Part shown: positions 6,505 to 43,320 of the stretch, one piece after another
How the letters are laid out: each line of letters opens with the position of its first letter
Numbering within the stretch: the stretch's first letter is position 1
IMG/VR virus record: IMGVR_UViG_2541047798_000010
DNA: 43,320 nucleotides
Direction: 5' to 3' (one strand)
DNA from: a virus
Taxonomy: Duplodnaviria; Heunggongvirae; Uroviricota; Caudoviricetes
Program-made: the position numbers and the translations under genes
The notes under the pieces: generated by a model
Database searches by the model: none
What the model was told of the DNA's origin: nothing
The model's input: the letters and a program-made list of their open reading frames with translations, nothing else

Positions 6505-6608
6505 GTTAAATCTCCAGATAGTCGCAGCACCCGTTGCGCCGCATATCTGGTTATTCTATTACCTGAAAAACCACATATGGATAAAAAGACTATAAATACC
6601 AATAGATA

Positions 6609-6623
6609 TTACCTTTCGGGTAA
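6609..6623. promoter_or_regulatory. Operator-type palindrome TTACC-N5-GGTAA (copy upstream of LexA-controlled gene, in divergent region with tailspike)
   Basis: ATTACCTTTCGGGTAAT; perfect match to the motif found at OR and OL. Confidence 0.6.
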
Positions 6624-6660
6624 TTTGCAAAACGTGCTGGATAGCAAACAAATTATTTGT

Positions 6661-6680
6661 TACTGTATAAACATACAGTT
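6661..6680. promoter_or_regulatory. LexA (SOS) box
   Basis: TACTGTATAAACATACAGTT: CTGT-N8-ACAG core intact, 17 of 20 positions match TACTGTATATATATACAGTA; 20 bp upstream of ATG 6700. Confidence 0.75.
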
Positions 6681-6699
6681 ATTGCATGGAGAAGATAAG

Positions 6700-6957
6700 A
6701 TGCAGCAGTATCACTATCCACTGGAAGACGGATTTACCGAAAGGATTCACACGCCGGGAGGCGTCAGGTCACTGGTGGAGGGATCGCACTTGATGAAATT
6801 ACTCCGGGATCTCGATAAGGATGGATTTAATGTCGATGGCCCACTTGCCGAACTGACTGCACTGATTAACTACGTCACCAGCTCACAGATGTCTATGCAG
6901 GATCTACAAACACATCTCGACTATTGTGCCGAACAATTACGAAAACAAACCAGATAA
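6700..6957 (+). CDS. Small standalone antirepressor-effector-domain protein (homolog of the C-terminal domain of the two Ant paralogs); SOS-controlled candidate antirepressor
   Basis: 85 aa from ATG 6700 (RBS GGAG 8 nt upstream); aligns with Ant C-terminus (IH-P-GV...LM-LL...DG-V-G-AELT...DLQTH-Y); LexA box immediately upstream. Confidence 0.65.
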   Translation: MQQYHYPLEDGFTERIHTPGGVRSLVEGSHLMKLLRDLDKDGFNVDGPLAELTALINYVTSSQMSMQDLQTHLDYCAEQLRKQTR

Positions 6958-6988
6958 GATTTGAAATTACCAATAGGAGTGCTTATAT

Positions 6989-7003
6989 TTACCTTTGCGG
7001 TAA
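6989..7003. promoter_or_regulatory. Operator-type palindrome TTACC-N5-GGTAA sitting in the loop of a hairpin (AGGAGTGC/GCACTCCT) at the outer edge of the left ant arm
   Basis: TTACCTTTGCGGTAA; mirrored by the copy at 10028. Confidence 0.6.
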
Positions 7004-7094
7004 ATTTACATCGCACTCCTCTTGTGCCATAGTAATCGGGCACTGGCAAAATCCAGTGCCGGGATTGGCGTCCCGGGTTACTAAGTGGCGCATA

Positions 7095-7117
7095 CCACGC
7101 CAGACGTGGTTTTTTTA
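7095..7117 (+). terminator. Rho-independent terminator inside the ant1 leader
   Basis: Stem CCACG/CGTGG followed by TTTTTTTAT; preceded by two further stem-loops (GGCACTGG/CCAGTGCC and CCGGGA/TCCCGG). Confidence 0.55.
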
Positions 7118-7272
7118 TGCGTTAAGCACAGCTATATCCGAATTATGGTGGGCTGGGCAGGGGTCCGAAAGGACGCCGGTACCACTTAGGCCGGTACGCC
7201 AACCTTGTCCAGTTCACCACCAGTAATTGGCGTTGCGGTGGTGATTAAAATCACTAAGTGGAGATAACCACC

Positions 7273-7983
7273 ATGGCTAATGCTCAAACTGCCATCTTCA
7301 AATTTGAATCTGTTAACCCTATCCGTTCCATCATTATCGATGGCCAACCATGGTTTGTAGCCCAAGACGTTTGTAGTGCGCTGCGTATCCAAAACGTCAC
7401 CCAAGCACTTGAAAAACTGGATGATGATGAAAGGTCTATGTTCAACATAGGGCATGAACATCGTGCAATTTTTGACAGCCGAGTAAAAGAGATCAACATT
7501 ATCTCCGAGTCAGGCCTCTACACACTGATCCTCCGCTGCCGCGACGCAGTGACACCAGGCACTATCCCCTACCGCTTTCGTAAATGGGTTACAGGTGAGG
7601 TTCTTCCTCAGATCCGCCGCACCGGAAGTTACATTAAAAACTCGCTCCCGCAGGAAGAACGCATAAAGATGGTTGCCGACCAGGTAGCCAACGCCACAGC
7701 ATCAGCAGTGATGCAGGCAATGAAGATAGAGAACAAAACCTACAGCGCCCCGCTGAAGCCCGGCTACCGCAGCCTGATTCATTCGCCGTCTGGTGTTCTC
7801 GGCCTGACGGAGAACTCACTGCTGATGAATCTGCTGAACCAGTTACAGGAAGACGGGCACGATGTATCGGGCGCGGCGGCGGAGCTGACCACCATGTTTT
7901 GCTACATCGTTGGTGTGAGCAAATGCCTGCGTGATATCCAGACGCACGCGGAGTACATCAACGACAAGGCTGGGTTCTTCTGA
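7273..7983 (+). CDS. Antirepressor paralog 1 (Bro-N-like N-terminal domain plus shared C-terminal effector domain)
   Basis: 236 aa from ATG 7273 (RBS GGAG); N-terminal IFKFESVNPIRSIIIDGQPWFVAQDVCSAL is Bro-N/KilA-N-like; C-terminal half nearly identical to paralog 2. Confidence 0.8.
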   Translation: MANAQTAIFKFESVNPIRSIIIDGQPWFVAQDVCSALRIQNVTQALEKLDDDERSMFNIGHEHRAIFDSRVKEINIISESGLYTLILRCRDAVTPGTIPYRFRKWVTGEVLPQIRRTGSYIKNSLPQEERIKMVADQVANATASAVMQAMKIENKTYSAPLKPGYRSLIHSPSGVLGLTENSLLMNLLNQLQEDGHDVSGAAAELTTMFCYIVGVSKCLRDIQTHAEYINDKAGFF

Positions 7984-8010
7984 CGGGCGGCGGCACAGGG
8001 ATGTGCCTTT
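7585..8010. repeat. Left arm of a near-identical inverted repeat (about 425 bp) covering the 3-prime half of ant1 and about 25 bp beyond its stop
   Basis: Reverse complement of 9045-9470 matches with only scattered substitutions; mirrored antisense ORFs 7634-7819 and 9232-9417 have near-identical translations. Confidence 0.8.
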
Positions 8011-8055
8011 AAATAATTCTGTACGATTGCAGACAGGGTGGTGAATAGAGTACTA

Positions 8056-8070
8056 TTACCTTACGGGTGA
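8056..8070. promoter_or_regulatory. Imperfect operator-type site upstream of the cargo gene
   Basis: TTACCTTACGGGTGA (one mismatch in the right half-site). Confidence 0.4.
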
Positions 8071-8107
8071 TCCATAGCGATTAGGCACCGATACAGGAGG
8101 AGCCCAC

Positions 8108-8140
8108 ATGAGAAAATTTGACGAGTACGAAGGCGTTTAA
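8108..8140 (+). other. 10-codon upstream ORF (MRKFDEYEGV) with strong RBS, followed by a terminator-like hairpin at 8161-8184; candidate attenuator leader for the cargo gene
   Basis: AGGAGG 7 nt upstream of ATG 8108; hairpin GGGGCC-ATTA-GGCCCC then GTTTTCAT; cargo start at 8200. Confidence 0.3.
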
Positions 8141-8199
8141 CATTCGGATAGTTTAATGACGGGGCCATTAGGCCCCGTTTTCATGTCTGGAGACAGTTT

Positions 8200-8739
8200 G
8201 TGTTAAGTGAAGAAATGCAATTTGCCATGGCTGTGGCTCAAATCGTAAGTGCAGTCGCGGTTTCGCTTGGCTTGTTCATAGCTATCGCTACTATTATTTA
8301 TAATGTAAATACAGCGAGAAAAGTACACACTTCAGTATTCCTTGGTGAAAGCAGGTTTGATGTAGATTATAAGAAAGGCCTATCTACTATGCGCCGCATT
8401 CACGAGTCGAACAAATCATTCCGCTCTTATATGTATCCAAGCAATGGGCAGGCTGATCTTACGGATGAAGAAAAGATAGAGAAGAGAGAAATAATTTACT
8501 GTCTAGGTTTCTACGAACGCATGGCTGTGAGCGTGAAGCGGAAAACTTATGATGAGACCATGATTAAGGAAGTATTTTACAGCTCCGTTGTAAATAACTA
8601 TCAGATTGCGCTACCTCTTATACAAGCTATTAGAGAAAAAGAAAACATAAACACATATTTTAAAGAATATGAATGGTTAGCCACACGATGGAAGGATTGT
8701 CCATTGAAGGACAAATCCCCGTGGTACAAGTTTTGGTAA
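8200..8739 (+). CDS. Membrane-anchored protein of unknown function; AT-rich cargo between the inverted ant genes (candidate superinfection-exclusion or abortive-infection protein)
   Basis: 179-aa ORF with GTG start at 8200 (GGAG 7 nt upstream) or ATG 8215; single N-terminal TM helix; markedly AT-rich; 3 of the first 8 Arg codons are AGA/AGG; followed by a strong terminator. Confidence 0.6.
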   Translation: MLSEEMQFAMAVAQIVSAVAVSLGLFIAIATIIYNVNTARKVHTSVFLGESRFDVDYKKGLSTMRRIHESNKSFRSYMYPSNGQADLTDEEKIEKREIIYCLGFYERMAVSVKRKTYDETMIKEVFYSSVVNNYQIALPLIQAIREKENINTYFKEYEWLATRWKDCPLKDKSPWYKFW

Positions 8740-8762
8740 GCCCGCAGCGCGGGCTTTTTTGT
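8740..8762 (+). terminator. Rho-independent terminator after the cargo gene
   Basis: GCCCGC-AGC-GCGGGC followed by TTTTTTGT directly after the TAA stop. Confidence 0.7.
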
Positions 8763-8832
8763 GGACGAAACAAAAGTCAGTGCTACACTCATTGACGCCA
8801 CATTGAGGTGGCTTATAGATGGAAATTTCACA

Positions 8833-8994
8833 ATGAAAAAAGCATTTGCTGCACTGTTCGTTTTGTTGTCTCTGGTAGCTTCAACTCAGGCCTTTGCCGG
8901 TCGTTGTCAGCACGACAGCGACACTGCTGCTGACGGCTCCCGCTGCGGTGGGCGTTCTGCGGATTCCCGCCCTGGCGGCGGTGGCATTCGTTAA
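8833..8994 (+). CDS. Possible small secreted Gly-rich peptide (53 aa); weak call
   Basis: Internal ATG of track ORF 8761-8994; predicted signal peptide MKKAFAALFVLLSLVASTQAFA; no convincing RBS. Confidence 0.3.
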   Translation: MKKAFAALFVLLSLVASTQAFAGRCQHDSDTAADGSRCGGRSADSRPGGGGIR

Positions 8995-9017
8995 AAACAA
9001 GGCCGCGAAAGCGGCCT
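8991..9017 (-). terminator. Rho-independent terminator for ant2
   Basis: Minus-strand stem GGCCGC-TTTC-GCGGCC followed by TTGTTTTTAA, about 50 bp downstream of the ant2 stop. Confidence 0.55.
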
Positions 9018-9018
9018 G

Positions 9019-9030
9019 TGACATGTCACG
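9019..9030. repeat. 12-bp perfect palindrome GTGACATGTCAC (copy 1 of 3)
   Basis: Exact 12-mer also at 28175-28186 and 30629-30640. Confidence 0.6.
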
Positions 9031-9044
9031 ATAGTTTCGTTTTG

Positions 9045-9470
9045 CACATCCCTGTGCCGCCGTTCTGTCAGAAGAACCCTGCTTTGTCGTTGATATACTC
9101 CGCGTGGGTCTGGATATCACGCAGGCATTTGCTCACACCGACGATGTAGCAGAACATGGTGGTCAGCTCCGCCGCCGCGCCCGATACGTCGTGCCCGTCG
9201 TCCTGTAACTGGTTCAGCAGATTCATCAGCAGTGAGTTCTCCGTCAGGCCGAGAACACCAGACGGAGAATGAATCAGGCTGCGGTAGCCGGGCTTCAGCG
9301 GGGCACTGTAGATTTTGTTCTCTATCTTCATCGCCTGCATTACTGCTGACGCCGTGGCGTTGGCTACCTGGTCGGCAACCATCTTTATGCGTTCTTCCTG
9401 CGGGAGCGAGTTTTTAATGTAACTTCCGGTGCGGCGGATCTGAGGAAGTACTTCGCCTGTAACCCATTCA
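9045..9470. repeat. Right arm of the near-identical inverted repeat (3-prime half of ant2)
   Basis: Reverse complement matches 7585-8010. Confidence 0.8.
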
Positions 9471-9760
9471 AGAAATCTGAATGCTCTCGTTCCCTCAGTC
9501 ATTGCCTCTTTGCAACGCAGAATAAGGATGTAGAGACCTGATTCTGAAACGATGGATAGTTCTTGTATTCCACCAGGGGTCTGTATTGAATACAGCCCCT
9601 TTTTGTTCCAGCCTTTTTTATCAAGTTTTCTCGCTTGTGTAACATCAATATTCAAAGCATTGCACACATCTTTGGTGACAAACCAAGGTTCTCCGTCAAT
9701 CATGAACATACGGATCTGGCAGGATGACTCAAAGGAAAAGATGGAAGGTTTGGTATTCAT
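9068..9760 (-). CDS. Antirepressor paralog 2 (Bro-N-like N-terminal domain plus shared C-terminal effector domain), inverted relative to paralog 1
   Basis: 230 aa from ATG 9760 (RBS AGGTGA); N-terminal domain diverged from paralog 1, C-terminal about 130 aa near-identical. Confidence 0.8.
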   Translation of the reverse strand: MNTKPSIFSFESSCQIRMFMIDGEPWFVTKDVCNALNIDVTQARKLDKKGWNKKGLYSIQTPGGIQELSIVSESGLYILILRCKEAMTEGTRAFRFLEWVTGEVLPQIRRTGSYIKNSLPQEERIKMVADQVANATASAVMQAMKIENKIYSAPLKPGYRSLIHSPSGVLGLTENSLLMNLLNQLQDDGHDVSGAAAELTTMFCYIVGVSKCLRDIQTHAEYINDKAGFF

Positions 9761-10027
9761 GGCGATCACCTTTGTAGTTAGGTTAATCACCACCGCTGAG
9801 ACCAATCAGATGGTGGTGAACTGTGCAGAGTTGGTCTTACCGGCTACAAAGGAACCCGGCGCACCTTTCGGTGCCCCCACACAGCCCACCATAGAATAGG
9901 TGCGCTTTACACATAAAAAAACCGCTTATGCGGCATATGTGCCTCTGTAGTAATCCGGGAGACCAATCCCGGCACTGGATTTTGCCAGTGCCTGATTACT
10001 ATGGCACAAGAGGAGTGCGATGTAAAT

Positions 10028-10042
10028 TTACCGCAAAGGTAA
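10028..10042. promoter_or_regulatory. Operator-type palindrome TTACC-N5-GGTAA at the outer edge of the right ant arm
   Basis: TTACCGCAAAGGTAA; mirror of the 6989 copy, with the same downstream stem-loops and terminator in inverted orientation. Confidence 0.6.
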
Positions 10043-10065
10043 TGATAAACGCTAAGAAATATTAA

Positions 10066-10084
10066 AATCAACCATATTTGGTTA
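10066..10084. promoter_or_regulatory. Second palindromic motif ATCAACCAnATTTGGTTA (AACCA-N4-TGGTT), copy 1
   Basis: AATCAACCATATTTGGTTA; near-identical element at 36927-36945; degenerate AACCACATA versions at 6569, 27150 and 34987, each next to an operator-type site. Confidence 0.35.
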
Positions 10085-10189
10085 ATGCGTATAAAAGAGC
10101 CAGCAGCGAGAAATTGTGCCGCGACGTAAAATAACGAGCATCTGCTGGCTTACAACCAGCGATGTTTCAAATTTGTCACTATTATCAAC

Positions 10190-10543
10190 GTGCCATTCCA
10201 CGGCGCAGAGCTTTATGTTGTCAATCATAACGGCGAACCATACACCCCAATGAAACCTATCGTTGAAGGCATGGGTATGGATTGGGCTTCACAGTTTACG
10301 AAAATGAAGCAGCGGTTTAAAACCTGCATTGTGAAAATCACAATGCAGCTTCCTGGGGATGAACAGCGCCGTGAGATTATTTGTTTGGCACTTCGCAAAC
10401 TTGCTGGCTGGTTGCAAACCATCAGCCCTAACAAAGTCCGCCCTGAAATCCGCGAAAGTATTGAAACATCAACCGTATCGATATCGACACGGTTGATTAT
10501 GACGGTAACTTATTTCCGTGTGTCCTATTTCTCCCGCCACTAA
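10190..10543 (+). pseudogene. Possible gene remnant; ORF with GTG start and no RBS
   Basis: 117-aa track ORF; normal GC content, no ribosome-binding site, ends directly against the minus-strand AT-rich gene. Confidence 0.25.
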
Positions 10544-10840
10544 CTAATTATATTTGTCTTTAAAAATTTCATGGAATGATTGAGAGTAAGACTTGCCATA
10601 CTTCAAATAACATTCTTCATCCAACTTTCTTAATGAACTTCGAACCTGTTCGTGGCATACAGCAAAAAAAACAAGTCCGCCGCCTATTAATACCCCTATT
10701 GATATTGGGTTCGCAACATCCCATAAAAAATCGGCTAACAGAGCAAATACCCCACCGCCGCCAATAAATGCCCCTATAGCTCGGTTCGTTTTAGCTTGCT
10801 CATAGCGTCTCTCTAACTCACTAAACTCTTTAATATCCAT
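10544..10840 (-). CDS. Small two-TM membrane protein, AT-rich moron
   Basis: 98 aa from ATG 10840; two Gly-rich hydrophobic helices (GAFIGGGGVFALLADFLW and ISIGVLIGGGLVFFAV) with charged termini; low GC. Confidence 0.55.
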   Translation of the reverse strand: MDIKEFSELERRYEQAKTNRAIGAFIGGGGVFALLADFLWDVANPISIGVLIGGGLVFFAVCHEQVRSSLRKLDEECYLKYGKSYSQSFHEIFKDKYN

Positions 10841-10917
10841 ATAAGCACCTCTATAAAATTACTTCATCACCGGATCCACCTGGTTTATTAGTGGCGCAAT
10901 CCAGAACAGATGTTTTA

Positions 10918-11766
10918 TTATTGTGAAGTTTTCATTGCACGATTTTCAGCTCTGAATTCAAGAACCGTTTCAATATTTCTTTCCTTCAGCATATCCATAA
11001 CATTTTTATTCATTTGACTATCACTGGTTAATAACTGATAAACGTTTCTTTTCTCTTTATCAGAATTTTCTTTAACAGCTGATTTGCATGACAAATGCTT
11101 ATTGAAATTTTCTACATCGCTAGTACATGAATTTACGGCTGCGGATGAAATATCAGACGCTGAAGAAACACCGTCATCTAAACGTTTTATAGCATTTTCT
11201 ATACATGAGTTAAGGGAATAAACGACAACTGAGCGATACCCTTCAGACGCACACCATTCTAAATTTCTTGAAGGATCGAGTGGTTTTACTTCGCTGGATT
11301 GAATTAACTTGTCAAACACTGACTTATATTCAATCTGTTTTTTATCTATAGCCCATACCTCAGTAGCTGATTTATAATGCCCAGTATGCTTATTAACATC
11401 AAACCCATGTTTTATAAGCAAATCTGCCCATGAAAGATTTATTGATTCATTGTTATGAGGCCATTTCCCTGTCAGAACCGCCCCCATAGACCCCATATAT
11501 CCGCCATATGATGGTATAGCACCATGGCTCAATAACTTCTCAGCAACCACAGGGCAATTAATTACATAGGAGGCGTAAAGCCCATTCCATAAAGCCCCTC
11601 TATAGTAATCGCCGCGATTAGGTTCTTTTAAGTCGATAGCCTTTGATAATTGTTCACACGTTTTGCATGCATCAAAGTTATCCTTATTGCATTGCAATGA
11701 ACTGGCGGCTGTAGGATTTACAGCGACTATTGAAAGCACAATGCCAAACAAATTTATTTTTTTCAT
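10918..11766 (-). CDS. Secreted Cys-rich protein of unknown function, AT-rich moron (possible degenerate ankyrin-like repeats)
   Basis: 282 aa from ATG 11766; N-terminal signal peptide MKKINLFGIVLSIVAVNPTAASS; many Cys; segments such as ADLLIKHGFDVNKH resemble ankyrin repeat ends; low GC. Confidence 0.6.
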   Translation of the reverse strand: MKKINLFGIVLSIVAVNPTAASSLQCNKDNFDACKTCEQLSKAIDLKEPNRGDYYRGALWNGLYASYVINCPVVAEKLLSHGAIPSYGGYMGSMGAVLTGKWPHNNESINLSWADLLIKHGFDVNKHTGHYKSATEVWAIDKKQIEYKSVFDKLIQSSEVKPLDPSRNLEWCASEGYRSVVVYSLNSCIENAIKRLDDGVSSASDISSAAVNSCTSDVENFNKHLSCKSAVKENSDKEKRNVYQLLTSDSQMNKNVMDMLKERNIETVLEFRAENRAMKTSQ

Positions 11767-27538: not shown

Positions 27539-27615
27539 GTGGCATTAGCTCAGTTGGACAGAGCAACCGCCTTCTAAGCGGTTGGTCGCAGGTTCGAATC
27601 CTGCATGCCACGCCA
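27539..27615 (+). tRNA. tRNA-Arg (anticodon UCU, reads AGA), phage-encoded
   Basis: 77-nt cloverleaf: acceptor GTGGCAT/ATGCCAC, D-stem GCTC/GAGC, anticodon stem ACCGC/GCGGT with loop CTTCTAA, T-arm GCAGG-TTCGAAT-CCTGC, discriminator G and encoded CCA; differs from host argU. Confidence 0.9.
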
Positions 27616-37404: not shown

Positions 37405-37989
37405 ATGAAAAGTATCCAGGACGTCCGCAGGCAAAATCTCAACGACTTGATCGACCGTGAATTCAATGGTGTTCAGACGCGGATGGCAGAAAAACTTGGA
37501 ACTCAGGCAAATCTGGTAAACCGCTGGGCTCTTGGCAAGAAGGTTATCGGCGACCAGGTTGCACGAAAAATTGAAGCTGCCGCCAATAAACCCCGTAACT
37601 GGCTTGATATTGATCGTTCGCTTTCTCAGGAGGGTTTTCAGCCTGTCGGCCCGAGCGATATAGGTCAGTTGGCGGCTCACAACCTGGAACGCTGGATGAG
37701 CGAAAGCCGCGACCTTTCAACACAGGGAAAACTTCACCGCGCATCCGGCGTCGCCCAGGTGACAATCAGCCGCCTGTTAAACAATGAGGTCAGCGTTTCC
37801 ATTTCCACTCTGGAGAATGTTGCATCCGCATTCGGGCGTCACGGATATGAACTACTGATTCACCCGCACGACCCTGCGACTATCAACTATGACCGCTCAC
37901 GCTACGCATTGTTACCCGAAACCGAGAAAGCAAAGATCGAAAGTTACATTGAATTTGTCATCAACCAGAACGAAAAAAGCAAACAATAA
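37405..37989 (+). CDS. Prophage repressor with two tandem HTH (XRE-type) domains and no LexA-like autocleavage (S24) domain
   Basis: 194 aa; HTH-like segments near aa 20-60 and 95-150; divergent from cro-like gene; own terminator downstream. Confidence 0.7.
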   Translation: MKSIQDVRRQNLNDLIDREFNGVQTRMAEKLGTQANLVNRWALGKKVIGDQVARKIEAAANKPRNWLDIDRSLSQEGFQPVGPSDIGQLAAHNLERWMSESRDLSTQGKLHRASGVAQVTISRLLNNEVSVSISTLENVASAFGRHGYELLIHPHDPATINYDRSRYALLPETEKAKIESYIEFVINQNEKSKQ

Positions 37990-38297: not shown

Positions 38298-38597
38298 ATG
38301 AACGTTAATCAGCAGAAAAATCTTCAAAAAATCATGCTGGCATTCGACAAGGACTACCGCCTGTCAGAACAGCTATATGACCGACAAGTTGAACTGATTG
38401 AGAGCATCCGACTTCATCAACTGTCCTCAACTTTCGACGTTGTAACAGGCAAAGGCGTTCGTCAGGAAGTGCTGGAGGCTGCTAAAGACAGCCCTGAGTT
38501 CGAAGAACTGATGGATTCCTACCGGCGCGAGGCAATGGCAATTATCGCCCGCTGGGATCTGGCGGATCGGATTGATGGGCAGAGGGAAGCGGCATGA
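38298..38597 (+). CDS. Hypothetical early protein
   Basis: 99 aa from ATG 38298 (RBS GGAGGG 7 nt upstream); ATGA coupling to the exonuclease gene. Confidence 0.5.
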   Translation: MNVNQQKNLQKIMLAFDKDYRLSEQLYDRQVELIESIRLHQLSSTFDVVTGKGVRQEVLEAAKDSPEFEELMDSYRREAMAIIARWDLADRIDGQREAA

Positions 38598-39493
38598 TGC
38601 AGAACGCTGGAATCATGGATAGAACAAAATACATCGGAGGAAGCGATGTTGCAGGGATTCTTGGAATTAGCCCATGGCGCACCCCGCTTGAGGTTTATCT
38701 GGATAAGGTCCAGCCACGTGTCAAACCAGTAGACCCAAGCAAGCAGAAAGTTTTCACGCGTGGCCAGCGTATGGAGCCATACGTAATAGACCTGCTTTCT
38801 GAGGAAACAGGGATGGAAATCGTTCATCGCGGAAACCGCTATATCCACCGTGATTACGATTTTATTGCAGCTGAGATCGATGCAGAAGCAGCGTCAGGCG
38901 AGAACATTGAGATCAAAACAGTTAGTCCGTTCAAAGCCAAAGAATGGGGAGAAATCCAGACAGATGCAATTCCTGTGCATTACACGGCCCAGGCCATGCA
39001 CGGGTTGATGGTTACAAACAAACAGGTATGCGTTTTCGGTGTGCTTATCGGTGGCGACGACTTCCGAATCTATCGGGTTGAGCGTGATGAAGAAACTATC
39101 CAGGCGATCTTAGAAAAAGAAATCGCTTTCTGGGACCGAGTGAAAAATCTTAACCCGCCGGAAGCTACCAGCGTAAGCGATGTATCGCTGATGTTTGAGA
39201 AAGATGCCGGGACAAGTATCGAGGCTGACGGAAAGGCACTCGCACTATTCAACGATCTACGAGACATGAAGTCACGCAGAAAATCACTGGAAGAAGAAAT
39301 AGCTATATCAGAAGAGAAGCTGAAGATGTACATGCAAGAGCACTCAGTCCTGACCCTGGACGGAAAGCCGCTCTGCACATGGAAATCTCAGATCAGCAAC
39401 AGATTCGACCAGAAGCTATTCCAGTCAGTACACCCTGAGTTATTCGAAAAATTCAAAACAACAACGACACAACGCGTCTTCAGAATGAAGTAA
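38594..39493 (+). CDS. YqaJ-like recombination exonuclease (PD-(D/E)xK)
   Basis: 299 aa; N-terminal YIGGSDVAGILGISPWRTPLEVY typical of YqaJ/lambda-Exo-like exonucleases; paired with RecT. Confidence 0.8.
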   Translation: MMQNAGIMDRTKYIGGSDVAGILGISPWRTPLEVYLDKVQPRVKPVDPSKQKVFTRGQRMEPYVIDLLSEETGMEIVHRGNRYIHRDYDFIAAEIDAEAASGENIEIKTVSPFKAKEWGEIQTDAIPVHYTAQAMHGLMVTNKQVCVFGVLIGGDDFRIYRVERDEETIQAILEKEIAFWDRVKNLNPPEATSVSDVSLMFEKDAGTSIEADGKALALFNDLRDMKSRRKSLEEEIAISEEKLKMYMQEHSVLTLDGKPLCTWKSQISNRFDQKLFQSVHPELFEKFKTTTTQRVFRMK

Positions 39494-39502
39494 GGAGAAA
39501 AA

Positions 39503-40525
39503 ATGTCTATCAATGCACTTAAGGCAGCGGCTACCGGTAACCAAGTTGCACATCATAATGAGAAACCAACAACTCTGGCCGGACTTCTGGCAGACCCAAA
39601 AATTAAAGCTCAGATGGCTTTGGCACTTCCAAAGCACATGACAGCAGACCGTCTGGCGCGCATAGCAACCACAGAGATCAGAAAGGTTCCAAAACTTGCA
39701 TCATGCGACCAAGCCAGCTTCCTGGGGGCAATTATGCAATGTGCCCAATTGGGTCTTGAACCAGGCGGAGCTCTTGGACACGCTTACCTGATACCGTTCG
39801 ACAAACGCCAGAAAGTAAATGGAAGATGGGAAACCGTATCTACAGAAGCACAGCTGATTATCGGCTATCGCGGAATGATTGACCTTGCCCGCCGCTCTGG
39901 GCAGATCCTGAGTATCTCGGCTCGTACCGTACATACAAACGACAAATTCAGCTACTCATACGGCCTGGAAGAAACGCTCGAGCATTTACCTTGCGAAACA
40001 GGTGACCGCGGAGAATTAACGCACGTTTACGCCGTTGCACGACTGAAAGATGGCGGAGTCCAATTTGAAGTTATGAGCCGGGCAGACGTTGAGAAAGTTC
40101 GTGCACTGAGCAAAGCCGGTAGCAGTGGCCCATGGGTTGATCACTTCGATGAGATGGCTAAAAAAACAGTAATTCGCCGACTGTTCAAATATCTTCCTGT
40201 TTCTATTGAAATGCAGAAGGCTGTTGTTATGGATGAGCGCGCTGAAGCTGGACTTAGCCAAGATAACGCAGCTGTTATCACTGGTGAATATTCCGTAGTT
40301 GACGATGAGCGTCAACACCTGTCGCCAATTTCAGATTCAGAACGAGAAGAAGCTCGAGAATATATCATCGCGATACTTAATAGCCTGGATCCATCTGCTG
40401 AAGATGCAAAAACGATGTTCAAGCGCGCTGAAAATGAAATTAACACCATGGCTGAAAAGCTCGGTGATGAATATCACCAAAAATTCATGATGACGCTTAA
40501 CGATATGCGTCCAGAATTCGAGTAA
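39503..40525 (+). CDS. recT: RecT-family single-strand annealing protein
   Basis: 340 aa; RBS AAGGAG; follows the exonuclease gene; RecT-like core. Confidence 0.85.
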   Translation: MSINALKAAATGNQVAHHNEKPTTLAGLLADPKIKAQMALALPKHMTADRLARIATTEIRKVPKLASCDQASFLGAIMQCAQLGLEPGGALGHAYLIPFDKRQKVNGRWETVSTEAQLIIGYRGMIDLARRSGQILSISARTVHTNDKFSYSYGLEETLEHLPCETGDRGELTHVYAVARLKDGGVQFEVMSRADVEKVRALSKAGSSGPWVDHFDEMAKKTVIRRLFKYLPVSIEMQKAVVMDERAEAGLSQDNAAVITGEYSVVDDERQHLSPISDSEREEAREYIIAILNSLDPSAEDAKTMFKRAENEINTMAEKLGDEYHQKFMMTLNDMRPEFE

Positions 40526-40932: not shown

Positions 40933-41232
40933 GTGAGAAAGTTAAGCCGACTTGAAAAATATCACATGAATAAGGTTTCAATGCGCAGTCCGTCAAAGAT
41001 TGTCGCCGTTACTCCTGCGGCGATAGAGATCGAAAAACGCGCGATTGAAAGAGAGAAAAAAGGGCAATTCCGCATTGCCGCTCACCTTTGGCTTCAGTGT
41101 ATGGATGTTGCTTCTGGTGATGTTGAACGTGCAAGGATCGCGGTTCGCAGGGACCAATGTATCACAAAAGGTAACGGCCTTCGCCGTGGCGACTATAGCG
41201 GCATAGGATGTTGTGGGGTGGTTTATGACTAA
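40933..41232 (+). CDS. Hypothetical protein, start uncertain (GTG 40933 or ATG 40966)
   Basis: 99-aa track ORF; stop overlaps the methyltransferase start region. Confidence 0.35.
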   Translation: MRKLSRLEKYHMNKVSMRSPSKIVAVTPAAIEIEKRAIEREKKGQFRIAAHLWLQCMDVASGDVERARIAVRRDQCITKGNGLRRGDYSGIGCCGVVYD

Positions 41233-41875
41233 GAAATACACACTAATCTATGCAGATCCACCCTGGGTATACCGGGACAAAGCCGCAGATGGTAATCGCG
41301 GTGCCGGTTTTAAATATCCGGTTATGAGTGTGCTGGATATCTGCCGCCTTCCTGTGTGGGATTTGGCCGATGAAAACTGTCTGTTGGCCATGTGGTGGGT
41401 GCCAACACAACCACTCGAAGCACTAAAAGTTGTTGAAGCCTGGGGATTCCGTCTGATGACGATGAAGGGCTTCACGTGGATAAAATGTGGTAGTCGACAA
41501 CCAGATAAACTGGTTATGGGTATGGGACACATGACTCGCGCCAATAGTGAAGATTGCCTGTTTGCGGTAAAGGGAAAACTACCTACGCGCATTAATGCAG
41601 GGATCGTTCAGTCATTTACCGCACCGCGGCTTGAGCATTCAAGAAAGCCAGATATCGTTCGTGAAAAACTTGTGCAATTATTAGGCGATGTTTCTCGCAT
41701 TGAACTGTTCGCCCGCCAGACGTCTCATGGCTTTGATGTTTGGGGTAATCAGTGCGAAGACCCGGCAGTGCAACTACACCCTGGATACGCGTTGGATATT
41801 GGCGGATTAACAAATGCATTCAGCAATGCTCCGCTGTCACCAACAGACATCCAGGGGCGGGAGCGTGCTGCATGA
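41225..41875 (+). CDS. MT-A70-family DNA N6-adenine methyltransferase (orphan)
   Basis: 216 aa from ATG 41225; catalytic DPPW motif in YTLIYADPPWVY; no adjacent restriction endonuclease gene. Confidence 0.8.
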   Translation: MTKKYTLIYADPPWVYRDKAADGNRGAGFKYPVMSVLDICRLPVWDLADENCLLAMWWVPTQPLEALKVVEAWGFRLMTMKGFTWIKCGSRQPDKLVMGMGHMTRANSEDCLFAVKGKLPTRINAGIVQSFTAPRLEHSRKPDIVREKLVQLLGDVSRIELFARQTSHGFDVWGNQCEDPAVQLHPGYALDIGGLTNAFSNAPLSPTDIQGRERAA

Positions 41876-42069: not shown

Positions 42070-43320
42070 TTATTCCCCCGCCATCCACTTCTCAAACTTC
42101 GACGGGGAGAACGGAATCAGATCCGTATGCTCCCCGTCAATCCATGAATCAATCATATCGGCCCACTGCTGCAACATGTAGGCGCGCTGTCTGGCGTATT
42201 CCGCTTTGTTATATACGGCGCGCACACCTTTCTGCTCATGTGCCAGAGCCTTTTCAATCCAGTCTGAAGGATAACCAGCCTCATGCAACAACGTACTGGC
42301 TGTACGGCGCATATCATGTACAGTGAAGTCCTGAATATGCTCACCATCTTCATTTATTATTTTCACCGTTCTGTCGATCAGAGAGTTCAGCGCGGCATTA
42401 GATAATGGCTTCCGGAAATTGTAACGACCAGGAACCAGATATTCACTTCCACCAGCGCACATCTGCAACCCGACCAATATATCCTGTGCCTGTTTAGGCA
42501 GGTAAATAACGTGCGCCCGGCTTCCCTTCATGCGGTCTGGAGGAATTGTCCATGTCCATTTTTTAAAATCTATTTCATCCCACGTTGCATTGGTGAATTC
42601 GCCCTTACGAACCATAGTGATAAGCACCAGTTTTAAAGCCATTTTCATAGTGCCCATAGCACCAATGGCATCCAGCGTGCGGAAGAACAGGCCAATTTCT
42701 TCTGGTGTCAGTGTTCGCTCTCGTGGTTTAAATATGGCGATAGACGAAGGTTTAATGTCAGCCGCAGGATTAAACAAACCATGACCACGGTCATTGGCGT
42801 GACGGTATACGCTACTGATGATCTCCCTGGCCTGCACTGCTGTTGCCCGGCCACCGCGTTCGACAATCCGGTCACACAAATCACGAACCATCGATGTGGT
42901 AATTTCAGCCATCATTTTATTGCCAAGAACCGGAAGTATGTCACGGTCGATCACCGCCTGTTTCATTGCGCGGGTACTGTCAGCCAGGATGACGTGTTTC
43001 ATATAACTGTCGGTATGTACCGCAAACGTCTCGGCACCACGAATCTTTTTGATACCGTCACGTTTAGCCGCAGCCGGTGACTGGCCTGCTTTAAGCAGCT
43101 TCTTTGCAGCAATCAGTTCTTCTCGCGCTTCTGCCAGGCTGATACCGTCACGCCCATACTGCCCGATTACCAGTGTTTCGCGGCGACCGTTGATACGGTA
43201 GTCATAGCGAAACGAGACCGTGCCTGACGTAAGCACAGCTACATACAGCCCGTCACGATCGGAGACCTTGTACAGTTTGTCCTGCGGCTTGAGGTTTTTT
43301 AATTTTGTATCGGTAAGCAC
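42070..43320 (-). CDS. int: Tyrosine integrase, P4-type (5-prime end at or just beyond the window edge)
   Basis: 416-aa ORF running to the window edge; N-terminal LTDTKLKNLKPQDKLYKVSDRDGLYV arm-binding domain and C-terminal catalytic region (R...HDMRRT...Y). Confidence 0.9.
   Translation of the reverse strand: MLTDTKLKNLKPQDKLYKVSDRDGLYVAVLTSGTVSFRYDYRINGRRETLVIGQYGRDGISLAEAREELIAAKKLLKAGQSPAAAKRDGIKKIRGAETFAVHTDSYMKHVILADSTRAMKQAVIDRDILPVLGNKMMAEITTSMVRDLCDRIVERGGRATAVQAREIISSVYRHANDRGHGLFNPAADIKPSSIAIFKPRERTLTPEEIGLFFRTLDAIGAMGTMKMALKLVLITMVRKGEFTNATWDEIDFKKWTWTIPPDRMKGSRAHVIYLPKQAQDILVGLQMCAGGSEYLVPGRYNFRKPLSNAALNSLIDRTVKIINEDGEHIQDFTVHDMRRTASTLLHEAGYPSDWIEKALAHEQKGVRAVYNKAEYARQRAYMLQQWADMIDSWIDGEHTDLIPFSPSKFEKWMAGE

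Follow-up and report, generated by a model that had tools for sequence, protein, structure and literature searches.

Antirepressors and their control have hitherto been studied apart in several phages. In the immI region of P1 and P7 (c4, icd, ant), as in the CI/seqA/seqC system of P4, an RNA of the C4 family (Rfam RF01695, clan CL00128) comes from the antirepressor leader, two exposed segments of this RNA pair with two sites in the ribosome-binding region, and copies of these sites are also located upstream. In P1 and P7 the promoter carries an operator for the primary repressor and allelic sites lead to distinct specificities; Citron and Schuster reportedly described in 1990 that allelic C4 sites give the heteroimmunity between P1 and P7. 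In the isrK-orf45-anrP locus of Gifsy-1 the small RNA IsrK (RF01394) is followed by a downstream RNA and an antirepressor gene. Its terminator is leaky, a stable processed RNA (STnc1160) is formed, IsrK is complementary to the downstream RNA, and IsrK/STnc1160 has been likened to the CI RNA of P4 (Hershko-Shalev et al. 2016, PMC4825925). In Salmonella phage SPC32H, whose switch was reportedly described by Kim and Ryu 2013 and Kim et al. 2016, the tetramer of the antirepressor Ant takes apart the tetramer of the repressor Rep (PDB 5D50/5D4Z; PMC9638917), and in P22 the secondary-immunity island immI (mnt-arc-ant) lies by tailspike gene 9. Here we describe a locus with likeness to each of these systems. 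It is part of IMG/VR record IMGVR_UViG_2541047798_000010, a stretch of 43,320 nucleotides (nt) with a guanine plus cytosine (GC) content of 0.48 that is called the window throughout, and it consists of two convergent antirepressor genes, ant1 and ant2, each placed behind an IsrK and a C4 RNA, in mirror image around a cargo segment.

The window can be assigned to an epsilon15/phiV10-like (Uetakevirus) prophage of E. coli, because it encodes homologs of Rep and Ant of SPC32H and shows nucleotide matches to phiV10, TL-2011b, ZX5 and others. We consider it likely that the locus represents two convergent paralogous secondary-immunity antirepressor cassettes, mirrored around swappable cargo, and that the unit is a recombination-prone mosaic and not a switch. 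The anatomy of the two cassettes is as follows:

6989..7033, plus strand: left leader, palindrome (6989-7003) abutting the sigma-70 promoter TTTACA-17-CATAGT (7005-7033); motif and promoter search
7040..7116, plus strand: IsrK-1 small RNA with b1 UUGGCGU, a1 CUAAGUGG and a terminator at 7094-7110; Rfam RF01394, 67.7 bits
7141..7224, plus strand: C4-1 antisense RNA with loop a' CCACUUAG and linker b' ACGCCAA; Rfam RF01695, 66 bits, and predicted fold
7225..7272, plus strand: ant1 translation initiation region with b2 UUGGCGU (7228-7234) and a2 CUAAGUGG (7254-7261, overlapping the Shine-Dalgarno sequence)
7273..7983, plus strand: ant1, 236 amino acids (aa), with Bro-N domain (aa 17-112), linker and SPC32H-Ant-like domain (aa 155-231); Pfam and PDB
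9068..9760, minus strand: ant2, 230 aa, with a Bro-N domain of a different type and the same Ant-like C-domain; Pfam
within 9761-9808, minus strand: targets of C4-2 in front of ant2, CUACAAAGG and UUGGUCU
9809..9896, minus strand: C4-2 antisense RNA with loop a' CCUUUGUAG and linker b' AGACCAA; Rfam RF01695, 78.6 bits
9915..9991, minus strand: IsrK-2 small RNA with terminator, b1 UUGGUCU and a1 CUACAGAGG; Rfam RF01394, 74.7 bits
9998..10042, minus strand: right leader, promoter TTTACA-17-CATAGT and palindrome (10028-10042); motif and promoter search

Antirepressor cassettes and their predicted RNA regulators

Both antirepressors carry a Bro-N domain well above the Pfam cut-off of 25.6 bits (ant1: E = 9.6e-20, 71.5 bits; ant2: E = 1.9e-13, 51.3 bits). 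The proteins are 75% identical overall and 98% identical over the C-terminal 128 aa, and the C-domain of ant1 matches 5d50_E, an 86-aa "Anti-repressor protein" (PDB 5D50), with E = 1.2e-13. For the related phage ZX5 it has been reported that overexpression of a Bro-N antirepressor favours the lytic cycle (PMC9782041).

All four RNAs score above the Rfam gathering scores (IsrK 50 bits, C4 45 bits), and both IsrK sequences match the model at full length. The predicted minimum free energy fold of C4 is a long outer stem around two hairpins, as in RF01695. The a' segment forms the loop of the second hairpin and b' the single-stranded linker after it, and both are complementary to the 48-nt region between C4 and the ant gene; IsrK repeats the two sites of the ant ribosome-binding region as a1 and b1. 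In both cassettes of the window a' pairs with a2 over 8-9 nt and b' with b2 over 7 nt. We extracted the sites by pattern from 92 scanned loci, since a MAFFT alignment of 29 leaders misplaced indels in the a and b sites, and found that the six elements a', b', a2, b2, a1 and b1 vary together from module to module. The a site occurs in four variants and the b site in three, and these combine to 8 specificity classes, with a cognate complementarity of 7-9 nt for a and 7 nt for b and no more than one site in common between two classes.

The two cassettes of the window have neither the a nor the b site in common. Pairing was judged by loop-only duplexes and counts of exact complements, because RNAduplex runs with full-length C4 gave over-long and uninformative duplexes; for the window pair these loop-only duplexes have energies of -9 to -17 kcal/mol for cognate and -5 to -10 kcal/mol for non-cognate combinations. 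Since no specificity site is shared, the two cassettes look orthogonal and are predicted not to cross-regulate each other. As a' and b' are complementary to a2 and b2, C4 would be expected to block translation of ant through these two pairings, and IsrK, which carries the copies a1 and b1, may act as a decoy or an activator.

The regulatory layout thus resembles P1/P7 and P4 in its C4-family RNA from the antirepressor leader, in the two exposed segments directed at two sites and in the additional upstream copies of these sites; as in P1/P7, a (here putative) operator for the primary repressor accompanies the promoter and allelic sites define distinct specificities. Unlike P1 immI, the window has no icd-like open reading frame (ORF) in the 48 nt that separate the ant start codon from C4, and the C4 target directly overlaps the Shine-Dalgarno sequence of ant. 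Its antirepressors do not belong to the P1 Ant family but combine Bro-N, their only Pfam domain, with the SPC32H-Ant-like domain, the host of the system is a podovirus of the epsilon15 group, and two specificities are mirrored in one genome. The order of IsrK, a downstream RNA and an antirepressor gene is shared with Gifsy-1; unlike there, no coupling ORF corresponding to orf45 is present, no link to AntQ was seen, and the locus is duplicated and inverted.

A third copy of the arm-encoded domain and the presumed target of all three are located outside of the unit:

6609..6623, no strand assigned: palindrome, putative Rep operator, 5' of orf85; motif count
6663..6678, plus strand: LexA-box-like sequence CTGTATAAACATACAG just 5' of orf85; pattern search with CTGT-N8-ACAG
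6700..6957, plus strand: orf85, 85 aa, standalone copy of the arm-encoded domain; phmmer against PDB, 5D50 chain E, E = 4.1e-47
37405..37989, plus strand: Rep, prophage repressor; PDB 5d50_A "Repressor", E = 3.5e-42, residues 1-190

Judged by its PDB match, orf85 is a close ortholog of the SPC32H antirepressor Ant; it is labelled "hypothetical protein" in RefSeq and is a neighbour of the tailspike gene at each of the 80 IMG/VR loci that we examined out of 299. The LexA-box-like sequence suggests that orf85 is apparently under SOS control. The window therefore holds what characterizes an SPC32H-type Rep/Ant system, a Rep homolog and a small Ant homolog of 5D50 chain E with a LexA box, and in addition its arms encode an Ant homolog. 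Unlike in SPC32H, the Ant domain of Ant1 and Ant2 is fused to Bro-N and placed under IsrK/C4 and not LexA control. Apparently three genes of the window encode a Rep-binding domain, one of them SOS-controlled and two as Bro-N fusions behind IsrK and C4, with Rep as the presumed target of all three.

We counted 13 copies of the palindrome TTACC-N5-GGTAA in the window, where 0.71 would be expected (positions 6609, 6989, 8056, 10028, 27202, 30332/30350, 34967/35029, 37287/37335 and 38047/38109). Copies are often paired at a distance of 18-62 nt; the pairs 37287/37335 and 38047/38109 bracket rep, others are located in gaps of the early region, and four copies fall in the region of the unit. At both ant promoters the palindrome lies directly 5' of the -35 element, and it is also found at orf85 and at the cargo promoter. 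This distribution suggests that the set is probably the dispersed operator of the SPC32H-type Rep.

Nested inverted repeats and their recombination

The inverted repeat is genuine and stands well above chance. The repeat finder returned an inverted pair of 504 nt with 89% identity (7481-7984 / 9067-9570), a pair of 106 nt with 92% identity (6978-7083 / 9948-10053) and a perfect 19-nt pair directly past each stop codon (7988-8006 / 9044-9062). A gapped alignment of the two sides, with the identity determined per segment, separates four zones, of which the innermost forms the arms:

6989-7069 / 9962-10042: leader, promoter and 5' part of isrK (81 nt), 97.5% identity
7070-7272 / 9761-9961: 3' part of isrK, C4 and ribosome-binding site, 74.4% identity
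7273-7593 / 9458-9760: N-domain of ant, 61.1% identity
7594-8006 / 9044-9457: C-terminal arm and hairpin (about 413 nt), 94.9% identity
7594..8006, plus strand: left inner arm, 3' half of ant1 with post-stop hairpin (7992-8007); repeat finder and alignment
9044..9457, minus strand: right inner arm, 3' half of ant2 with hairpin; repeat finder and alignment

The leader contains a perfect run of up to 49 nt and the arm one of up to 95 nt, 372 of the 390 coding nt of the arm are identical (95.4%), and the arms enclose 1,037 nt. The leader shows this pattern of divergence because its conserved part comprises the promoter and structural hairpins, and its diverged part the specificity code.

A preliminary description of this DNA, based on its letters and ORFs, had presented ant1 and ant2 as inverted paralogs with diverged N-terminal domains of Bro-N type and mirrored leaders containing operator, stem-loops and terminator. 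The ORFs, the aligned repeat, the Pfam matches in both proteins, the low identity of the N-domain zone and the 81-nt leader with IsrK and C4 on either side all agree with this. The arms are inverted homologs as it had stated; to call them near-identical was a slight overstatement, as 18 of 390 coding positions differ. AT-rich cargo is an apt term for the variable slot (8071-8737, GC 0.41, against 0.57 in the arms) and does not fit the region of the small-protein gene (GC 0.53). The description had recognized the paralogs and their mirrored regulatory leaders, and had overlooked the IsrK and C4 RNAs, the putative Rep-binding Ant domain and the upstream Ant with its LexA box.

Both cargo orientations occur among relatives, as had been anticipated. 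The small-protein gene of the cargo is located on the strand opposite to orf85 and the tailspike gene in loci L005, L017, L039, L042 and L090, and its minus-strand position is confined to loci with two convergent arms. Furthermore, two pairs of loci differ by clean inversions. L002 and L042 have colinear flanks, and the 3,260 nt inside are an exact inversion of one another (98.4% identity); between L090 and L091 an interior of 3,033 nt is exactly reversed (96.9% identity, flanks 97.2-97.6%). In both cases the ant genes switch sides along with the cargo. When the four leaders of L002 and L042 are aligned, variants change from being linked to the flank to being linked to the segment inside an identical stretch that comprises the promoter and the first IsrK hairpins. 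Because linkage switches within this stretch, the crossover of this pair is located in the outer leader repeat (about 80 nt) and not in the C-terminal arms. The outer boundaries of L090/L091 are the same; the base-level mapping of the crossover refers to L002/L042 alone. The comparison of L090 with L005 points to a different event: from the left arm rightwards they are 99.6% identical, the left N-domains differ, and this pattern indicates cassette exchange by a double crossover in leader and arm.

Machinery suited to such events is encoded in the window:

38594..40525, plus strand: YqaJ-type exonuclease and RecT recombinase; Pfam YqaJ 2.8e-23, RecT 4.4e-57

YqaJ/RecT is a phage-encoded system for homologous recombination that could act on the repeats. 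The nested repeats are probably passive substrates for host RecA or phage RecT: among relatives, a crossover in the leader repeat flipped the whole unit, double crossovers from leader to arm swapped the middle cassette, and arms became homogenised in some loci. As either orientation keeps both cassettes intact, the inversion is probably a by-product and not a switch. Inversions between inverted copies of prophages or of ribosomal RNA operons likewise flip DNA by reciprocal exchange without a dedicated recombinase. The unit differs from those in its 3-kb scale, in that the repeats are functional modules, and in that the shortest repeat, of about 80 nt, holds the mapped crossover.

The preliminary description had assigned the central role to the arms: ongoing gene conversion would keep them alike, and recombination between them would flip the 1-kb cargo with the N-domains staying in place. 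We regard this as rather improbable for the window, although the arms do provide the longest homology (413 nt, about 95%, with a perfect run of 95 nt). We compared 72 full-length arms over the 390-nt coding part and found that arms taken from separate loci show a median of 13 differences (5-95% range 7-19). The two arms of the window differ at 18 positions, which is above this between-prophage median, and 17 of these are third-codon positions, with 2 amino-acid changes. We therefore see no sign of recent homogenisation in the window; the similarity of its arms is better explained by population-wide conservation of a functional domain, that is by purifying selection, and the near-identity does not argue for ongoing conversion. 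A pooled test of arm differences within against between loci was not significant (p = 0.065). In the family as a whole intralocus conversion does appear to occur, notably at loci with flipped cargo: the two convergent arms of L017 are identical and its third arm shares private variants, and in L005 a single one of the 390 arm sites differs. L017 is colinear with the window in the right module (96.9%) and has the DUF4760 cargo the other way round, as expected from exchange between arms. However, the left N-domain of L017 is a different one, and inversion of the whole unit together with cassette exchange explains the arrangement equally well. An arm-only inversion leaves the local junctions unaltered; L017 is compatible with such an event and not diagnostic of it. 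Against a flip of the cargo between the arms stand both clean inversions, which include the ant genes, and the breakpoint mapped to the leader; among the loci compared we found no two that agree in both N-domains, left and right, and differ in the orientation of the cargo.

Site-specific invertases of the Gin, Cin and Hin type adjoin tail-fibre genes in Mu and P1, and the position of the unit next to the tailspike gene together with the two orientations in relatives would fit a programmed segment that switches cargo or antirepressor. Yet no invertase or resolvase domain was detected in the ORFs tested (6577-11766 and the regulatory half of the window), where the tyrosine integrase at 42070-43320 is the sole site-specific recombinase found; here we agree with the preliminary description, which had noted that no recombinase is adjacent and that the locus is not a classic invertase switch. 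In addition, the boundaries consist of at least about 80 nt of homology and not of a short crossover site, and every gene keeps its own promoter in both orientations, so that nothing is switched. For these reasons we favour passive homologous recombination, and a dedicated invertase seems highly improbable. Alternatively, no inversion might have taken place, and the two orientations might stem from independent assembly of two-cassette loci by recombination of single-cassette phages. The region is indeed highly mosaic, each type of N-domain is met in the upstream cassette of single-cassette loci, and exchange of cassettes is seen. Independent assembly is nevertheless hard to reconcile with two independent pairs in which the whole interior of one locus, 3.0-3.3 kb long, is the exact reverse complement of the other and the boundary positions coincide: interior and flanks show the same identity, and the same three-part content in mirror image is not expected, so that we give this possibility little weight as well.

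Some observations count against the interpretation as a mirrored pair of secondary-immunity cassettes recombining passively. The C-domain of the arms is only 42% identical to orf85 (measured against ant1 residues 155-228), so that Ant1 and Ant2 are putative binders of Rep. Binding of Rep to TTACC-N5-GGTAA is deduced solely from the distribution of the motif. The b1 site of IsrK does not always match b', as in the right module of L017, so that the pairing of IsrK may be under weaker constraint than that of C4 with the ribosome-binding site. Finally, the inversions are deduced from relatives that have diverged by 2-3% and not from observation inside one population.

Cargo slot and distribution in relatives

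The segment between the arms consists of a variable slot followed by a constant gene:

8027..8070, plus strand: cargo promoter TTGCAG-18-TACTAT with operator-like palindrome (8056-8070); sequence and motif
8071..8737, plus strand: variable cargo slot with mini-ORF, hairpin and DUF4760 gene; bounds from the comparison with MS8345
8200-8739, plus strand: DUF4760 gene; Pfam E = 1.6e-30
8833..8994, plus strand: constant small protein, 53 aa, with signal peptide; phrog_3117, phrog_14503
9000-9017: bidirectional terminator hairpin after the small-protein gene

In dozens of loci the sequence 3' of the upstream ant stop codon is conserved and comprises the hairpin (7992-8007), the promoter and the palindrome (8056-8070). 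Right after the palindrome at least 8 unrelated sequences were found across loci; in relatives these include a toxin pair of the YafO family and an ORF of 633 nt. The small-protein gene accompanies every type of cargo and, together with the bidirectional terminator, marks the end of the slot at almost every locus. In MS8345 ant1 and ant2 are those of the window and the cargo is another one, homology stopping at 8060 and restarting at 8737. Cargo content thus does vary between conserved arms, in line with the preliminary description. With PADLOC neither DUF4760 nor the small protein nor any of the flanking ORFs was recognized as part of a defence system, and a literature search yielded nothing informative on DUF4760. 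Upstream of the DUF4760 gene (region 8095-8181) a strong Shine-Dalgarno sequence precedes a 10-codon mini-ORF (MRKFDEYEGV, 8108-8140), and a GC-rich terminator-like hairpin (8160-8177) with a T-run reaching to 8181 lies between the mini-ORF and the gene; from its layout this looks like a leader-peptide attenuator. In loci L004, L006 and L089 the space between the left leader and orf85 forms a further hot spot of insertion (830-1,070 nt), which holds either a toxin pair of the YafO family or an ORF of 729 nt on the minus strand.

Among 5,426 complete E. coli genomes 654 contain the region; 41 carry two convergent cassettes and two more are disrupted by insertion sequences. In the swine isolates UTME-14 (NZ_CP157090.1) and UTME-10 (NZ_CP157104.1) the annotation of the matched region includes a transposase of the IS3 family that is missing in the related isolates UTME-9 and UTME-12. 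About 31 of the 41 two-cassette genomes look like one ST131-type arrangement, represented by one inspected record (L090, ST131 isolate 46). This group (L090 and about 30 more) consists mostly of human clinical isolates including O25b:H4-ST131 and, to judge from L090, appears inverted, with a 218-aa non-Bro-N protein as left Ant. We found no E. coli genome with the exact arrangement of the window and none that covers at least 80% of it, the closest being MS8345. Most of the 80 IMG/VR loci have a single cassette, and in single-cassette loci the cargo always points in the same direction as the ant gene. L017 (IMGVR_UViG_3300045988_096329, about 6550-11250) carries three IsrK-C4-ant cassettes, two of them convergent and the third direct. 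phiV10 (L092, DQ126339.2) has one cassette at 2271-2950; its Bro-N gene is annotated with 585 nt and followed by a 90-nt ORF, and is possibly frameshifted relative to the prophage genes of 690-711 nt.

The same architecture was found in independent complete E. coli genomes, and this recurrence across many complete genomes rules out an assembly artefact. We also rejected a transposon-like cassette, since the unit is devoid of a transposase and single-cassette loci hold the left leader at the same place; reading the alignments by eye, no target-site duplication was apparent in the flanks of the outer repeats.

The unit occupies a mosaic region with the tailspike gene on one side and internal-protein genes on the other; like P22 immI, it would be a secondary-immunity island beside a tailspike gene. 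The regulation differs from Arc, Mnt and sar of P22 in its use of IsrK and C4 RNAs. Relatives such as F11 have a P22-type Ant and Arc in the convergent position, and the right flank of the unit holds a remnant of this type:

10190..10543, plus strand: truncated P22-type antirepressor N-terminal domain; Pfam P22_AR_N, E = 1e-31

Homologs of this remnant are incomplete pseudogenes in RefSeq annotation. In relatives we also noticed full P22-type Ant proteins with a C-domain 84% identical to the arms, sometimes beside Arc (L003). Elsewhere in the prophage a tRNA-Arg(TCT) gene (27539-27615) and a gene for an MT-A70 family methyltransferase (41213-41875) are present.

Relation to prophage immunity and gene exchange

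Each component of the unit belongs to a known family. In our literature search we found no description of a Bro-N fusion to an SPC32H-type Ant under IsrK/C4 control, nor of combinatorial specificity classes, mirrored orthogonal cassettes, an operator-controlled cargo slot or recurrent inversion of a whole unit of this kind. One locus joins the SPC32H Rep/Ant switch, the IsrK of Gifsy-1 and the C4-type antisense immunity of P1 and P4. Three genes with an Ant domain are predicted to feed different inputs into one repressor, SOS through orf85 and two antisense circuits that would not cross-react. The finding should be of moderate interest to phage biologists and of modest interest outside this field.

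For annotation it is relevant that the 3-kb unit is invertible, so that both orientations are legitimate and not errors of assembly. A possible consequence is that orientation sets which ant gene, and whether the cargo, follows leftward late transcription through the region. The hot spot with its conserved promoter and operator shows where E. coli prophages exchange accessory genes, including toxin-like ones. The 8 co-varying RNA classes form a natural set, of relevance to synthetic RNA regulators as well as to superinfection immunity and to cross-talk among prophages.

A more speculative reading, which we put forward tentatively and hold to be possible but on balance improbable, is that the locus provides a secondary immunity with a dual "barcode". 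C4 would silence matching incoming relatives, Bro-N::Ant would beat non-matching residents, the mirrored layout would have been selected, and the slot would be an expression site that is active once Rep is off. If this holds, the alphabet of 4 x 3 sites would be the outcome of an arms race among prophages that share Rep. The mirror layout would be favoured since RecT of the phage would delete direct repeats and inverted ones would merely flip, and the operator-controlled slot would serve as a general expression site for genes that are needed when Rep is off.

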